A stretch of DNA of 64,000 nt, taken from Candidatus Harrisonbacteria bacterium CG10_big_fil_rev_8_21_14_0_10_40_38 (lineage in GTDB: Bacteria; Patescibacteriota; Minisyncoccia; UBA6257; 1-14-0-10-40-38). Location: contig PFAZ01000009.1 of the NCBI GenBank assembly GCA_002773535.1, positions 34,739 through 98,738 on the forward strand, given 5' to 3'. The notes under the pieces are model-generated. The model was not told where the DNA came from and did not search any database. It worked only from the letters and a program-made list of their open reading frames with translations. This document shows, in pieces, positions 3,355-47,955 of the stretch (within the stretch, counting starts at the first letter, position 1; each line of letters opens with the position of its first letter). The position numbers were made by a program, and so were the translations under genes.

Positions 3355-5280
3355 ATGAAAACGAAATATTGGTTTTGGTTCTGGAAAACTTTTTTGGGAC
3401 CAAGCCGACTTCGAAAAAGGTTTGTCCAAACTTTTTTATTTGCTGGGCTTATACCGCTGGTTCTTATGGGAGCAGTCAGCTTTTATTTGGTGAGACTCAC
3501 TCACCAACAGGATGTTTCTGCGTTAGAGCAGAATATCTCAAACCAGGTTGCCACAGAAATAAAAAGGAATCTTGATGTGGCGGGGTCAATACTAGAACTA
3601 AGGGCAATATTTGATAACTTTGCACCTATTGCCTTTGATCAACAGTCATTAATTTTAGAAGATGTTTTCCGAGCTCTCCCACCGCTTGTTGAAGCTTCGT
3701 TTATATGCACAACGCCATTGCATTGCTCTGTCGGAGTTGAAACGAGTAGATGGGTAAGAAAAGGAAATGAAGCGCAACCGGAGCTAGAACTAAGAAACAG
3801 AATAAATGATCCTCAATTTGCAGCAGTGAGAGGAAGCGAGGGCAGATCGTTTGGCGAACCAATAAAAACCGCTGATGGAAAATTTGTGATTCCATTTGCT
3901 GCTCCTGTTTTTAATAAAAATAGTGAGGTTATAGCAATACTTGCGGCTTGGCTTGATTTATCAGGACTTGTGCAAGATATAGTTGCAAATGCAAATCTTG
4001 GACAGACAGGGTACGTTTATGCCGTAATGACTGACGGCACAATAGTGGCACATAGAGATCCGTCCCTTGTTGGGGAGACAATAAAAAACACCCCTATAAG
4101 ACAGGCTCTTGATTTAAACGACAACGCACCGGTAACACAAAACACGTATGAAAGCCTTACGGGTGTTTCTGTGAGTGGATCACTTAGCACGGTTCCTGAT
4201 ACAGCGCTTGCTGTTGTGGCAGAATGGCCAAAAACTGAAACTCAGGCCCTTATTGATACGATCATTTTACAAATTTTAACTTTTGCTTTTATAAGCTTTT
4301 TCCTTTTGGCTATTATTTCGAGCTGGATGGCTCTAAAACTCATAGAACCAATTGCGCAACTTAGAATAGGAACGAGTATTATCGGCGGAGGAAATTTCGA
4401 CTATCAGGTCCATATAAATACGGGTGATGAACTTGAAGATCTTGGTAAAAACCTTAACCGCATGGCTCAAAATCTAAAAGGATTGGAAGAGGTAAATAAA
4501 CTTCGCCTTAGGACAGAGTTGCTTTCTGAAAGCCTTAGAAAAGAAAGGGAGGTGTCAAAACTCAAGGATCAATTTATAACAACGGTATCGCATCAATTTA
4601 ATACACCACTTTCTGTAATTAACTGGTCTCTTGATACACTTCGTGATCCAAAATCAACACAAGAACAGATAAAAGAAACTACTGAAGTAATTTATAAGAG
4701 TCAGAGGGATATTGCTGCAATTGTTGCCGACCTACTTACGCTTTCTGAAATTGGTTTTAGATATCAAAAAGATAGAGTAAAACAAATAGACATTGCGGCG
4801 CTTGCGGATAAGGTTCTTGAAGAATTTCAAGATGCATTAAAAATCAAGAAAATAACCGCGCAGGTCACAAGATCGGGAGACACTATTGCGGAGGTAAATG
4901 AATTTACGATGCGAAAAGTAATTGAAAACTTGGTAGACAATGCTATCGCGTATTCAAATGAAGGAGGTGTTGTAACAATATCCATTGAAGGGGCTGGAAC
5001 AAACTTGAACCTAAACGTCTCTGATCATGGAATCGGAATACCAAAAGATGAACAACCTCTCATATTTCAACAGTTCTTTAGGGCAAAAAATGCCATAGCA
5101 AAGAAAAATGTTGGAACTGGTCTAGGGCTTTTTATAACAAAAAGTATAGTGGCGGGTCATGGGGGGAAAATATCTTTTACGTCTTCTGAAAATCAGGGAA
5201 CGATGTTTTTTGTGACTATTCCTAAAAAAGCCACTATAGAACAAACACCTCCGGTAAAACCTGAACTCAAAAAATCATAA
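3355..5280 (+). CDS. sensor histidine kinase (two TM segments, periplasmic sensor, HAMP, HisKA, HATPase_c)
   Basis: 641 aa. TM helices near aa 30-50 and about aa 300-320. HAMP-like segment HINTGDELEDLGKNLNRMAQNL. H-box VSHQFNTPLSV. G-boxes GTGLGLFITKSIVAGHGGKI. Confidence 0.8.
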   Translation: MKTKYWFWFWKTFLGPSRLRKRFVQTFLFAGLIPLVLMGAVSFYLVRLTHQQDVSALEQNISNQVATEIKRNLDVAGSILELRAIFDNFAPIAFDQQSLILEDVFRALPPLVEASFICTTPLHCSVGVETSRWVRKGNEAQPELELRNRINDPQFAAVRGSEGRSFGEPIKTADGKFVIPFAAPVFNKNSEVIAILAAWLDLSGLVQDIVANANLGQTGYVYAVMTDGTIVAHRDPSLVGETIKNTPIRQALDLNDNAPVTQNTYESLTGVSVSGSLSTVPDTALAVVAEWPKTETQALIDTIILQILTFAFISFFLLAIISSWMALKLIEPIAQLRIGTSIIGGGNFDYQVHINTGDELEDLGKNLNRMAQNLKGLEEVNKLRLRTELLSESLRKEREVSKLKDQFITTVSHQFNTPLSVINWSLDTLRDPKSTQEQIKETTEVIYKSQRDIAAIVADLLTLSEIGFRYQKDRVKQIDIAALADKVLEEFQDALKIKKITAQVTRSGDTIAEVNEFTMRKVIENLVDNAIAYSNEGGVVTISIEGAGTNLNLNVSDHGIGIPKDEQPLIFQQFFRAKNAIAKKNVGTGLGLFITKSIVAGHGGKISFTSSENQGTMFFVTIPKKATIEQTPPVKPELKKS

Positions 5281-36990: not shown

Positions 36991-37204
36991 TATTTATTTG
37001 TGAGCCTGCCTGGAATCTCACGCGCTCCGCAATGCGGGGCTTTTAAAACCCCTCGGTTTTAATGTTTCCGCCACGGTAAAACAAGTGTTTTCCCGACCCC
37101 TGCCTGCCGGCAGGCAGGCCTTTCCTGTTCGAATCGCATTCAAATAATTTTTATAAGATAGATCCTGTTAAGTAAAAATATATTTATTTGTGCGCCTGCC
37201 TGGA
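36991..37204. repeat. 24-nt direct repeat of the tRNA 3' end (36991-37014 and 37181-37204, one mismatch), flanking a decayed tRNA-like remnant and a 20-bp perfect palindrome
   Basis: tatttatttgtgAgcctgcctgga versus tatttatttgtgCgcctgcctgga. The sequence between them contains GATTCCAGGCAGGCTCAC (a degenerate tRNA T-arm/acceptor read on the minus strand), the palindrome cctgcctgccggcaggcagg (37099-37118), and GGGGCTTTTAAAACCCC. Confidence 0.6.
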
Positions 37205-37262
37205 TTCGAACCAGGGGCCAATGCCTTATAAGAGCACTGCTCTGCCACTGAGCTACAGGCGC
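37191..37262 (-). tRNA. tRNA with an Ile-type anticodon loop and anticodon UAU (putative tRNA-Ile reading AUA)
   Basis: Read on the minus strand: GCGCCTG TA GCTC AGTGGCA GAGC A GTGCT CTTATAA GGCAT TGGCC CCTGG TTCGAAT CCAGG CAGGCGC A. The loop CTTATAA gives anticodon UAU. The loop is identical to the E. coli tRNA-Ile(GAU) loop except at position 34. Confidence 0.75.
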
Positions 37263-39140: not shown

Positions 39141-39213
39141 GCATCCATAGCTCAATTGGCAGAGCAGCTCCCTCTTAAGGAGACGGTTCCAGGTTCGATT
39201 CCTGGTGGATGCA
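39141..39213 (+). tRNA. tRNA-Lys (anticodon CUU)
   Basis: GCATCCA TA GCTC AATTGGCA GAGC A GCTCC CTCTTAA GGAGA CGGTT CCAGG TTCGATT CCTGG TGGATGC A. Confidence 0.8.
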
Positions 39214-39215
39214 CA

Positions 39216-41351
39216 ATGATTACTCTTTCGACTGAACTTTTACGCATCAGGGGCATAAGCCCTTCACTTATCGCCCACCTAAAAAAACTGAAGATTGAAA
39301 CTGTGAGAGACCTTCTTTGGCACTTCCCAACGCGGTATGAAGATTTTTCACGAATCACTCAAATTGCTGATTTGTCGCCTAATCAATCGACGACAGTTTC
39401 TGGTGTAATTAAAAAAGTTTCCAGCAGATATTTACCGCGCAAACGTTTTACTATAGTTGAAGCTGTAATAACTGATAGTACTGGTGAAGTAAAAGCTATC
39501 TGGTTTAATCAACCTTATATCACACGCATACTTAGGCCCGGACTGAAAGTTAATTTTGCAGGTAAGGTTGTTATAGATAAAATTTCCAGAACACTGTGTT
39601 TTTCAAATCCAACACACGAAATTTATAGAGGTTATCAAAAACAAACTCATACAGCTGGCCTTATTCCAATTTATCCGGAAACAAGGGGACTCACATCAAG
39701 AGGAATAAGATATTTAATTCAGCCAATATTAAAAGTACTTCCAAAAATTCCCGATTTTATACCTGAACATATTTTGAAATCCGAGCGTCTTCCGAGTATC
39801 AACAACGCACTCAATTACATTCACTTTCCAAAAAATTTAGGTGAAGTAGAACAGGCAAAGAAAAGATTTTCTTTTGAATCTCTTCTCCTTATACATTTAA
39901 ATAATTTAAAAATTAGAGCCGAGATATCTGGAGAGAGAGCGCATTCATTTTTGTTTAGTGACGGCGAGATTGACCAACTCTTATCGAGTCTTCCTTTTAC
40001 TCTTACAAAAACACAGGTGAGGAGTCTCGAGGAAATATTGGAAGACTTAAAAAAACAAACTCCTATGAATAGATTGCTACAAGGGGATGTTGGTAGTGGA
40101 AAAACCGTTATTGCAGCTATTGCGGCTTTGAGCATAGCAAAAACCGGGAAACAGGTGGCGATTATGGCGCCGACTGAAATACTTGCAAGGCAACATTACG
40201 CAACTTTTAAAAAATTATTTGGAGAAATTATGAAGGAGTGGGGGGTATCCTGCGCATTTATTTCCGGAGGGATATCAGCCTCTGCGAGGAAGCTTATTGC
40301 GGCGAGTATAAAAGCTTCTGAAATAAATGTTGTCATAGGGACACATTCACTAATACAAAAATCTATATCTTTTTCTGATCTGGCTTTTGTTGTTGTTGAT
40401 GAGCAACAAAGATTTGGTGTTGCGCAGAGGGCGAGACTTTTAAATGCATATAATACGGAACCTGTAACCGCTTCAACGAGAAAGACTTCGACTTATCCTC
40501 ATTTTTTATCAATGAGCGCAACTCCTATACCTCGAACTGTTTCTCTTACGATTTTTGGAGACTTAAATATTTCCACAATTGAAGAGTTGCCGAGTGGAAG
40601 AAAGCCAATAGTCACAAAAGTGGTTGATCCCGAAAACAGGGACAAGGCCTACTTATTTATGAGAGAACAAATAAAGAAGGGGAGGCAGGTGTTTATCGTA
40701 TGCCCAAGAATTGAAAATAGTACAGAAACAGAATCTAAGCTTCTTATAGATAAGAGGCAAGTTGAAGTTAAAACTGTGCAGGAAGAATATGACCGATTAT
40801 CGAAAGAGGTTTTCCCCGATCTTCGAGTTTCAATGATTCACGGCAGGATGAAAGCGAAGGAAAAGGATATGATAATGAAACAATTTTCTTCTGGATATAC
40901 AAATATACTTGTTTCAACATCTGTTATTGAGGTTGGTGTTGATGTTCCAAATGCGGCTGTGATGGTGATAGAGGGCGCTGATAGATTTGGCCTTGCACAG
41001 CTTTACCAATTTAGAGGCAGGATAGGCAGGGGGGAGCATCAATCTTTTTGTCTCTTGTTTTCAGAATCTTCCAGCAGCACAACTGCGCAGCGACTTGGCG
41101 CGCTACTTAAAGCTCGCAATGGATTTGAGCTTGCCGAGCTTGATTTAAAGCTTAGGGGGCCTGGGGAATTTTTGGGCGACAGACAGACCGGTATGCCAGA
41201 CATAGCAATGAATGCGCTAATGGATCCCGTACTGATAAGATCGAGTAGGCAGGCGTCAATGAAACTTCTTTCGGAAAGCCCAACCCTTGATTCTTATCCG
41301 TTGCTTAAGGAGAGACTTAGCTTAATAAGATCAGCTACTCATCTTGAATGA
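39216..41351 (+). CDS. recG: ATP-dependent DNA helicase RecG
   Basis: N-terminal wedge domain, helicase motifs GDVGSGKT and DEQQRFGV, and the C-terminal TRG motif. The ORF-track start (39156) runs through tRNA-Lys; ATG 39216 (MITLSTELLRIRG...) is the likely true start. Confidence 0.9.
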   Translation: MITLSTELLRIRGISPSLIAHLKKLKIETVRDLLWHFPTRYEDFSRITQIADLSPNQSTTVSGVIKKVSSRYLPRKRFTIVEAVITDSTGEVKAIWFNQPYITRILRPGLKVNFAGKVVIDKISRTLCFSNPTHEIYRGYQKQTHTAGLIPIYPETRGLTSRGIRYLIQPILKVLPKIPDFIPEHILKSERLPSINNALNYIHFPKNLGEVEQAKKRFSFESLLLIHLNNLKIRAEISGERAHSFLFSDGEIDQLLSSLPFTLTKTQVRSLEEILEDLKKQTPMNRLLQGDVGSGKTVIAAIAALSIAKTGKQVAIMAPTEILARQHYATFKKLFGEIMKEWGVSCAFISGGISASARKLIAASIKASEINVVIGTHSLIQKSISFSDLAFVVVDEQQRFGVAQRARLLNAYNTEPVTASTRKTSTYPHFLSMSATPIPRTVSLTIFGDLNISTIEELPSGRKPIVTKVVDPENRDKAYLFMREQIKKGRQVFIVCPRIENSTETESKLLIDKRQVEVKTVQEEYDRLSKEVFPDLRVSMIHGRMKAKEKDMIMKQFSSGYTNILVSTSVIEVGVDVPNAAVMVIEGADRFGLAQLYQFRGRIGRGEHQSFCLLFSESSSSTTAQRLGALLKARNGFELAELDLKLRGPGEFLGDRQTGMPDIAMNALMDPVLIRSSRQASMKLLSESPTLDSYPLLKERLSLIRSATHLE

Positions 41352-46633: not shown

Positions 46634-46954
46634 ATGAGCTTTATTAATGTACACTATTACTATTTTTTTTTCAAAAAAAACGAGGCCTGCTTTGCGCAAG
46701 GCCCCTATGGAACAGGGCTTTCGGCCCTGGGGTGATATAGAGTTGGTTGTGAAGTAGCTGATCTAATGATAACGCATTTGAAGAGCCGTACAAGGACGGG
46801 GTGTGGATAAGTTTAGATGGTGATAGGAGTTGTATACCAAAGCAGTCTCATAATCCGTTTAAGAGCTTATTAAATAATATTGATTGAGGTTATGGTAATG
46901 ATTTTGGGTTTACCCTGAGTGAGCCTTGTTTATAAAACAAGGCGAATCAAAGGG

Positions 46955-47231
46955 TGCCTGGGCGGTGAATCGAACACCGGACGCCAGCCTCTTCCGAGAG
47001 TTGGACTATATCATCATCCCGTAATTACGGGAGCTGGGCGCTTGTGCGAGTTTATTGTTGGGACTCACCCGCTAGTCTCTACACCTTCCGGAAAACCTAT
47101 GCCCTTTCCGGCTTGGCTCGGGATTGTACTTTAAAAAGTCTTTCCCCGAATTCACCCAGTTTTTAATCATGTATTACTACAAGATGCCCCAAAGAGTTTA
47201 GGGCTGCGCTCTACCACTGAGCTACCCAGGC
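46955..47231 (-). tRNA. intron-containing tRNA: exons assemble into tRNA-Phe (GAA); a 205-nt group I intron is inserted between positions 33 and 34
   Basis: Exon 1 is 47200-47231: GCCTGGG TA GCTC AGTGGTA GAGC G CAGCC CT. Exon 2 is 46955-46994: GAAGA GGCTG GCGTC CGGTG TTCGATT CACCG CCCAGGC A. Standard numbering places the junction at U33|G34, giving the loop CUGAAGA. Confidence 0.7.
46995..47199 (-). ncRNA. group I self-splicing intron (small, about 205 nt) within the tRNA anticodon loop
   Basis: In tRNA orientation: P1 is exon GCCCU paired with IGS GGGGC, with a U.G pair at the splice site. P10 is exon-2 GAAGAG paired with CTCTT. P7 strands are ...GGTGTAGAGACTAGCGGG... and ...GATATAGTCC.... 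P8 hairpin CTCCCGTAATTACGGGA. The intron ends ...CTCG with omega-G. Segments AATTCGGGGAAAG and CCCGAGCCAAGC resemble small bacterial tRNA introns; this is from memory. Confidence 0.7.
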
Positions 47232-47259: not shown

Positions 47260-47955
47260 CTATAGGAAATTTTTAATTCCTTCAATATGTCCCATGATTT
47301 TGTGATAGAGCTTTGTATTATTAACTCTAACCTCTAATGTTCCGTACGGAAGACGATTAAATGGTCTTTTGTTTAAACTTGATTTACTTATTCCATAGTA
47401 TGATTTTTTAAAGTTTTCTCGGGGAAAATTTGTAATATTTTGCCAGAATTTTATTAGTTCTTCTTCATTTTGGTGTTCAAATATTCTAATGCTTAATTTA
47501 ATGTCTTTTTTAGGGATATTATAGATTTCTATTAAAAACTTTAGAAAAACTTTAATTAGTATTGGATCTGAATTTGTTAGCGAAACTGGATGACTCGTAA
47601 GAGGTCTACCATTTCTTGTTTTTTGTCTTTTATATCCTTCCGCCCAATATAATGCAGTTCCTGCAATCAGAAGGTCTTTTTTTGAAAAATTTGTTATTTC
47701 ACTAGCTCCTTCTTTTTTGAGTTCTAAAGCCCTTTTTTGAGCTTGTATGGTTTGATATTTATTTCTTTTAATAAGTGCTTTTAGTGATTTTTTTTGTGTT
47801 CTTTTGTTGATTTTTTCTAATGTATTTTTTGAGAGTATTATTTTAGAAAGCCAGTCAGAAAGCGTTGACTTTGGGACACCAATACTTTCATTAATTTCTC
47901 TATAGCTTTTTCCTAAAAGCCTTAGTTTAATTGCTGATTCTTTATCTTTTCTCAT
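47260..47955 (-). CDS. HTH-domain protein, possible homing-endonuclease-like (LAGLIDADG-like fold?) adjacent to the intron-containing tRNA
   Basis: 231 aa. N-terminal HTH (SYREINESIGVPKSTLSDWL). A central LLIAGTALYWAEGYK segment loosely resembles a degenerate LAGLIDADG motif. Very Lys-rich. Function uncertain. Confidence 0.35.
   Translation of the reverse strand: MRKDKESAIKLRLLGKSYREINESIGVPKSTLSDWLSKIILSKNTLEKINKRTQKKSLKALIKRNKYQTIQAQKRALELKKEGASEITNFSKKDLLIAGTALYWAEGYKRQKTRNGRPLTSHPVSLTNSDPILIKVFLKFLIEIYNIPKKDIKLSIRIFEHQNEEELIKFWQNITNFPRENFKKSYYGISKSSLNKRPFNRLPYGTLEVRVNNTKLYHKIMGHIEGIKNFL

Follow-up and report, generated by a model that had tools for sequence, protein, structure and literature searches.

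A tRNA-Phe(GAA) gene interrupted by an IA-like group I intron, and the patchy gene beside it, in a Candidatus Harrisonbacteria genome

The stretch analysed here, referred to as the window, covers 64,000 nucleotides (nt) of contig PFAZ01000009.1 (positions 34,739 to 98,738 of the forward strand; assembly GCA_002773535.1) from Candidatus Harrisonbacteria bacterium CG10_big_fil_rev_8_21_14_0_10_40_38, and carries on its minus strand a tRNA-Phe gene in two parts. Exon 1 (47231..47200; 32 nt, GCCUGGGUAGCUCAGUGGUAGAGCGCAGCCCU) holds nt 1-33 of the tRNA and ends in CAGCC CU, with U33 as the base at position -1, whereas exon 2 (46994..46955; GAAGAGGCUGGCGUCCGGUGUUCGAUUCACCGCCCAGGCA) begins GAAGAGGCUGG with the anticodon bases G34, A35 and A36 and closes at A73; CCA is absent from the encoded 3' end. 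The 205 nt in between (47199..46995) start with AAACUCUUUGGGGC, end in CUCUCG and contain no open reading frame (ORF). An ORF of 231 codons on the same strand (47260..47955), predicted to encode an N-terminal helix-turn-helix (HTH) and a LAGLIDADG-like C-terminal domain, along with a long helix, ends 28 nt upstream of the tRNA gene. Judged by its sequence, the interrupted gene is very probably a functional tRNA-Phe(GAA) gene, split between U33 and G34 by an ORF-less, IA-like group I intron of a type common in the tRNA genes of Patescibacteria; it is the flanking ORF that lifts the interest of the locus above routine.

Run with its intron option (-i), ARAGORN reports a tRNA-Phe(GAA) with a 205-nt intron at site 33-34, and the coordinates of the two halves, placed 205 nt apart on the minus strand by an initial annotation made from the sequence alone, proved exact. 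In default mode, without that option, the program detects eight further tRNAs in the window but passes over the interrupted tRNA-Phe; it finds no second tRNA-Phe in the 64 kb. The Rfam model RF00028 (Intron_gpI) matches 46985..47209 on the minus strand over its full length (model positions 1-253) with 62.6 bits, against a gathering cut-off of 50 bits (E = 1.7e-13, computed for the whole window), in keeping with the group I intron proposed at the outset. Among the eight conceivable junctions in the anticodon loop, solely that after loop nucleotide 2 puts a U at -1 and a G at the last intron position (omega-G); because this pair occurs nowhere else in the loop, the junction between U33 and G34, first suggested together with the loop CUGAAGA, is dictated by the sequence. 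Folding of the exons spliced in silico, recommended at that stage as a check, yields a canonical cloverleaf with a 7-nt anticodon loop, a GAA anticodon and A73. The tRNA and intron are identical across three independent assemblies, and the contig recurs in several groundwater assemblies.

The helices of a group I intron can be placed along the whole of the intervening sequence (all coordinates are on the minus strand). P1 (47186..47204) joins exon nucleotides G29-U33 (GCCCU) to intron nt 10-14 (GGGGC), with a U33.G wobble at the 5' splice site, and the segment CUCUUU in its loop (47196..47191) is the guide of P10, facing G34-G39 of exon 2 (GAAGAG; 46994..46989). P2 is a hairpin with a GUAA tetraloop (47166..47185), found both by covariation in the family (see below) and in the minimum free energy (MFE) fold. 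Covariation also supports the 5' strand of P3 (47159..47153), the P4-P5-P6-P6a domain (47149..47083) and the P7.1 hairpin (GCGGG/CUCGC; 47046..47072), which bears a conserved 17-nt loop, UGAGUCCCAACAAUAAA. P7, the guanosine-binding helix, has its 5' strand (G-AGACUA) at 47073..47079 and its partner (UAGUCC) at 47008..47003, with the core GACUA/UAGUC; the 3' strand of P3 lies at 47040..47034 and the P8 hairpin (UCCCGU-AAUU-ACGGGA) at 47032..47017. The closing segment (46995..47008) consists of the 3' strand of P7, an 8-nt tail (AACUCUCG) and omega-G at 46995, and the CUCU of the tail is able to pair with A36-G39 of exon 2 across the 3' splice site. Thus P1, P10, P7, P8 and the terminal omega-G, the elements first picked out by eye, are all present. 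The MFE fold of the single sequence recovers P1, P2, P3, P4, P5, P6a, P7.1 and P8 (z = -2.8). Insertion of P7.1 between P7 and the 3' strand of P3 is a hallmark of subgroup IA, and the intron, as read from its sequence, is IA-like, in agreement with the assignment published for related introns (Nakagawa et al., 2026).

A single pattern scan (AGAGACUA...AUAGUCC...GAAGA-15N-UUCRA) of one genome per species in the GTDB returned at least 119 loci, the records being all metagenome-assembled genomes of Patescibacteria except for two with doubtful labels. At least 113 of these species-representative loci are uniformly resolved as a tRNA-Phe(GAA) gene split by the intron at the U33/G34 junction, each with U at -1 and omega-G; the rest of the listed loci are mostly cut by a contig end or overlooked by ARAGORN. 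Introns are 195-336 nt long (median 216 nt), identity to the window intron, among the matches listed, reaches 82% at best with a median of 75%, and omega-G is found in 116/116 family members. ARAGORN calls of Phe(AAA), Val, Tyr, Pro and Ile among the homologs, considered as possible other junctions or anticodons, were each resolved anew as Phe(GAA) 33/34 carrying U-1 and omega-G.

For covariation, the helices P1, P2, P3, P4, P5, P6, P6a, P7, P7.1, P8 and P10 were drawn on the window copy and counted on an alignment of 103 homologous sequences. Paired cells amounted to 90.3%, against 77.3% in shuffles (0/500), and the covariation score was 0.396, against 0.156 in shuffles and at most 0.157 in slid controls. 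In P1, exon nt 30 and the guide form a C-G pair in 74 sequences and a G-C pair in the other 29, with none unpaired, and the U33.G wobble is kept in 103/103. P7 is invariant and 100% paired; P3, P4 and P6a are paired in 99.7%, 99.8% and 96.1% of cells, with compensatory changes in each, and compensatory changes are also present in P8. All five stem pairs of P7.1 covary. P2 has two-sided changes at all eight pairs, the five next to the loop being paired in nearly all sequences and the two outermost in few. The exon-guide pairing in P1 is therefore under selection, and the family is under structural selection in more than 100 species. The window copy shows no deviation at the 93 columns conserved in at least 90% of sequences, and since it equals the consensus at 93/93 of them, no decay is visible.

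Variation within the family was seen in the insert next to P7 and in the 3' tail. The insert between P7 and the 3' strand of P3 (alignment columns 223-262; window 47046-47072) comes in two architectures, one a single hairpin with the loop UGAGUCCCAACAAUAA and the other, in about a quarter of the Phe 33/34 family, two hairpins (CCCGAAAGGG and a second one). The 3' tail of the intron (positions -8 to -4 from omega-G) pairs, in some 70% of the family, with nt 39-43 of exon 2, mimicking the 5' strand of the anticodon stem; this pairing is specific to its register (73% paired, against 28-51% in other registers), shows compensatory changes, and may free the 5' strand for P1. A related genome (L041; CAVRXN010000002.1, 6210-6441) has an intact, intron-less tRNA-Phe(GAA) followed, 30 nt on, by the 3' half of an intron and exon 2, with omega-G changed to A, and is a natural example of an interrupted copy replaced and decaying. 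Two further loci (L124 and L125, at about 4240-4320) carry a direct repeat of about 75 nt, made of the 3' end of tRNA-Phe and its flank, some 230 nt downstream of the gene, and the scaffold of L125 has an additional intron-less tRNA-Phe beyond tRNA-Pro/Arg, which may be a second copy or result from a chimera of strains.

Beyond the helices, the splice-site nucleotides and the selection on the exon-guide pairing, which are direct observations, splicing would be expected to proceed by established group I chemistry. The transcript would fold into P1-P8 with P7.1, and the guide GGGGC would pair with exon G29-U33 and form the U33.G wobble. Exogenous guanosine held at P7 would then attack after U33. 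With exon 2 G34-G39 aligned by the guide segment CUCUUU (P10), the 3'-OH of U33 would attack after omega-G205, so that the exons would be ligated with the loop CUGAAGA and the intron freed. As CCA is not encoded, it would be added after splicing.

The host and the position of this intron are not unusual, and it is a further case of a documented class. When 95 complete Patescibacteria genomes were surveyed for introns in their tRNA genes (Nakagawa et al., mSystems 2026, PMC13011429; preprint 10.1101/2025.07.03.662931), Table 1/S3 lists a tRNA-Phe(GAA) with an intron at 33/34 in a Doudnabacteria genome, GCA_016699995.1, the sole such case in that set; ARAGORN counts one tRNA-Phe there, and it is the interrupted one. 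The initial annotation had regarded a Phe host as unusual, a view that holds neither against this entry nor against the same arrangement in at least 113 species representatives. It had likewise placed known introns at other loop positions, whereas 33/34 is the well-known, classical site of the cyanobacterial tRNA-fMet intron (PMC13011429). Its third estimate, that 205 nt is among the smallest lengths, also needs correction: the intron is small without being extreme, as the family goes down to 195 nt and published Patescibacteria tRNA introns to 184 nt (PMC13011429). In the same survey nearly all Patescibacteria tRNA introns are IA and none is IC, intron-bearing and intron-less copies of one anticodon seldom coexist, and introns of tRNA-Asn(GUU) as well as tRNA-Asp(GUC) at 35/36 self-splice in vitro with no protein.

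The Doudnabacteria intron, which PMC13011429 tabulates without analysing it or its neighbourhood, shares with the window intron the Patescibacteria background, the tRNA-Phe host, the 33/34 site, U-1 and omega-G, the core, and the P7.1 loop GUGAG(U)CCCAACAAUAA; the two are 73% identical (211 nt and 205 nt). They differ in class (Harrisonbacteria/Paceibacteria for the window) and in the 3' tail, which is shorter in the window and does not have the stretch that pairs with nt 39-43 of exon 2. The Asn 35/36 intron in GCA_016700035.1, one of those shown to self-splice in vitro, is 78% identical to the window intron and shares its P3-P8 core and P7.1; however, the Asn/Asp introns (PMC13011429) sit in another host tRNA and at 35/36, have a P9 hairpin and in some cases an internal HNH endonuclease gene, whereas the Phe 33/34 introns have neither P9 nor an internal ORF. 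Williams (2020; bioRxiv 10.1101/2020.01.27.920355) describes a cyanobacterial class 'fMet.2Ug' and widens the four classical types to 21. The cyanobacterial tRNA-fMet(CAU) intron is inserted at 33/34 after the universal U33, as in the window, but belongs to IC3, has tRNA-fMet as host and in some copies encodes an internal PD-(D/E)XK endonuclease. The Azoarcus tRNA-Ile(CAU) intron is a minimal, ORF-less IC3 ribozyme of 205 nt in a tRNA anticodon loop. It thus resembles the window intron in length, in location within the anticodon loop and in the lack of an ORF, but differs in its site (36/37), in subgroup (IC3, with P9 and without P7.1) and in coming from Pseudomonadota. Its type is named 'Ile2.5Ug' in Williams (2020).

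An AlphaFold 2 model of the product of the 231-codon ORF, made from 44 homologs (predicted local distance difference test score, pLDDT, 87), has an HTH of three helices together with a long helix and a globular domain of alpha/beta type; in structural comparisons, this globular domain comes closest to homing endonucleases. A motif, GTALYWAEG (G99-G107), closes helix 92-107; L102, Y103, W104, E106 and G107 are invariant in the 44 sequences, and a motif of this type is retained in relatives at 30-36% identity. The listed homologs are all intact and of about 231 residues. Attempts to identify the protein by sequence with Pfam, NCBIfam and PHROGs, with phmmer and profile searches against the PDB, and with hhalign against I-CreI recognised the HTH alone. 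The C-terminal domain family comprises 3,248 clusters at 50% identity and has no Pfam model; a transitive link to LAGLIDADG through these clusters, gathered by profile search, was also sought, and 0/10 of the relatives scanned carried a LAGLIDADG Pfam domain. The ORF is described neither in PMC13011429, where endonuclease genes were sought inside introns alone and limited mobility was inferred, nor in the other literature searched.

Homologs of the ORF keep close company with the intron. At the loci selected by the intron, the ORF, where present, is no more than about 200 nt from the tRNA and, among the matches listed, is found upstream on the same strand in 19, downstream on the same strand in 17 and upstream in divergent orientation in 12; it is absent at a minimum of 32 intron-bearing loci that have 1 kb of sequence on both sides. 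An independent sample, selected by the protein, comprised 80 metagenome loci with an ORF homolog of at least 48% identity, 70 of them informative. A group I core was found within 450 nt of the homolog in 68-70 of the 70, with 55 fully resolved as Phe 33/34, and the three arrangements recurred (36 upstream and 21 downstream on the same strand, 11 upstream divergent); sampled database homologs were intron-adjacent as well (5/5). Two closely related loci, L042 (JAKAGX010000020.1) and L050 (JAMCYI010000004.1), are 97% identical, and L042 is without about 665 bp that correspond to codons 1-188 of the ORF, the intron-bearing tRNA-Phe being intact in both. At 28.4%, the G+C content (GC) of the ORF compares with 39.9% for the window and falls in the lowest 0.2% of equal-sized windows, and the GC is below that of the flanks in 86/87 loci. 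No link was seen between presence of the ORF and the sub-variant of the intron, the ORF being patchy in both. The genomic behaviour of the ORF points to a selfish gene.

With the ORF described, the explanations that compete with a functional, self-sufficient intron can be weighed together. It is highly improbable that the window holds a decaying tRNA-Phe pseudogene, or an intron that no longer splices, while the cell uses an intron-less tRNA-Phe elsewhere in its genome. Such a situation has a counterpart in the related genome L041, where an intron-less tRNA-Phe lies next to an intron remnant; moreover, the count of tRNA-Phe genes given above covers the 64-kb window of the genome, and the window intron, with its 8-nt tail, has no P9 hairpin, unlike the Asn/Asp introns tested in vitro, and both points count against a working gene. 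However, the L041 remnant is truncated and has lost omega-G, whereas the window copy has all its core helices, retains both the U.G pair and omega-G, agrees with the consensus at every highly conserved column, recurs unchanged in the three assemblies and belongs to a family under structural selection; the rarity with which interrupted and uninterrupted copies of one anticodon occur together (PMC13011429) argues in the same direction. A second alternative is that the intron is real but depends on a protein in vivo, the adjacent LAGLIDADG-like ORF being its maturase and not an endonuclease. LAGLIDADG proteins can serve as group I maturases (I-AniI, the bI3 maturase), ORF and intron are closely linked, and the absence of P9 from the Phe introns could weaken folding. 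We consider this improbable all the same, in view of the many intron-bearing loci without the ORF nearby, the deletion in L042 that left intron and tRNA intact, the invariance of the catalytic-type E-G of the motif, and the position of ORF relatives beside intron-less tRNAs. The closely related Asn/Asp introns, in addition, self-splice free of protein (PMC13011429).

What the ORF does is less settled. Collaborative homing, in which a free-standing, tRNA-targeting endonuclease moves together with an ORF-less intron, fits the facts best to our mind, though we advance it tentatively. The ORF may plausibly be a free-standing selfish gene of homing-endonuclease type that travels with the intron, a reading to which we give somewhat less than even weight; the wider proposal, that the ORF family is a Pfam-invisible clade of free-standing, single-motif, LAGLIDADG-type, tRNA-targeting homing endonucleases, of which the Phe clade forms with the 33/34 intron a chromosomal collaborative-homing pair, is more doubtful still. 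The main rival, for which the chances seem close to balanced, is that the ORF is unrelated to intron mobility: it would belong to an HTH DNA-binding family kept by tRNA genes, for regulation or as the remnant of an integrative element, and its link to the intron would reflect shared ancestry at the tRNA-Phe locus. Several results favour this rival and weigh against homing. The HTH is the sole part of the protein seen by sequence models: no LAGLIDADG match was found with Pfam LAGLIDADG_1/2/3 or NCBIfam, even at E values up to 10, for the 44 members and 10 distant relatives, nor in the PDB by phmmer or profile searches, and Foldseek returned nothing significant from the PDB or BFVD; because these comparisons were negative, the LAGLIDADG assignment is moderate and not firm. 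Relatives at 30-36% identity (L214, L217 and L219) are found 0-50 nt upstream of tRNA-Gln(UUG), tRNA-Gly(GCC) and tRNA-Glu(CUC) genes without introns; of the other distant relatives, one has an intron-bearing tRNA-Phe as its neighbour and another shows no tRNA within view. Across the wider family, the association is therefore with tRNA genes and not with introns, the link to the intron being confined to the Phe clade. The GC of the ORF follows that of the host (r = 0.78), which suggests long residence, and the listed homologs show no truncation. Finally, tRNA exon uniformity is 0.80 in ORF-bearing and 0.83 in ORF-less loci; the exons being no more uniform where the ORF is present, there is no co-conversion signal. 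On the other side, an unrelated protein would hardly be expected to change side and strand and yet stay within about 200 nt of the tRNA, to vary in presence among close relatives, to be AT-shifted in nearly every locus and to resemble homing endonucleases most closely in the structure of its globular domain. In most Patescibacteria, furthermore, tRNA-Phe has no intron (it was found in 1/95 complete genomes), yet nearly all close homologs of the ORF adjoin the intron-bearing form.

Under collaborative homing, the putative endonuclease would cleave tRNA-Phe alleles that have no intron, at or close to the palindromic anticodon stem-loop; a carrier of the intron would be shielded by it from cutting, and ORF and intron would be co-converted together. 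More speculatively, the DNA of the anticodon stem-loop, a natural palindrome, would suit a homodimeric single-motif enzyme. Collaborative (trans) homing has been reviewed (PMC3984707) with the example of the free-standing F-CphI, which adjoins an ORF-less psbA intron in cyanophage S-PM2. That system is of a phage, involves a protein gene and has an Endo VII-like enzyme, whereas the window concerns a cellular chromosome, a tRNA and a LAGLIDADG-like candidate endonuclease; the relatives of the window ORF that flank intron-less tRNA genes also set it apart. The work on F-CphI and the psbA intron of S-PM2 is reportedly that of Zeng, Bonocora and Shub, of 2009.

Taken alone, the intron matters little, apart from the fact that a tRNA-Phe gene of essential appearance escapes standard tRNA finders in many Patescibacteria and that the Phe 33/34 type, seen once in complete genomes, is widespread in drafts (at least 113 species). 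If the ORF does encode a homing endonuclease, the locus would help to explain at the DNA level how ORF-less tRNA introns persist and spread in these reduced genomes, would give a function to more than 3,000 clusters (50% identity) of uncharacterised tRNA-adjacent proteins, and would make the collaborative-homing route to mobile introns testable on abundant natural variation. Collaborative homing would also run counter to a published inference, namely that tRNA introns in Patescibacteria are of low mobility for want of internal endonuclease genes.

The remainder of the window encodes, among others, RecG, a class II ribonucleotide reductase, a PMT-family glycosyltransferase, a GNAT protein and a DedA/VTT protein. 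A phage origin was considered and, despite the many tRNAs of the window, discarded: megablast against phage records returned nothing and blastn just short matches to the group I core, the intron pattern had 0 matches in IMG/VR, and the gene content (RecG, the class II reductase, PMT, GNAT) indicates Ca. Harrisonbacteria, a member of the Patescibacteria (CPR), as does the product of the 231-codon ORF, which has 100% identity with a Ca. Harrisonbacteria protein (bacterium CG10_big_fil_rev_8...). Nine tRNA genes are spread across 18 kb of the window, including a tRNA-Ile with the anticodon UAU (37190-37262, minus strand), an uncommon bacterial way of reading AUA. The ORF call for RecG (39156-41351, plus strand) begins inside tRNA-Lys(CUU) at 39141-39214, and the true start codon of RecG therefore lies further downstream. 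A scan for promoters and terminators found TTGAAG-17-TAGAAT 26 nt upstream of the tRNA-Phe gene, the count of such sites not being above that in shuffles. On the other flank, 12 nt past the 3' end of the tRNA, an 8-bp hairpin (GCCUUGUU-UUAUA-AACAAGGC; 46923-46943, minus strand) with no U-run behind it may serve as a signal for processing or termination.

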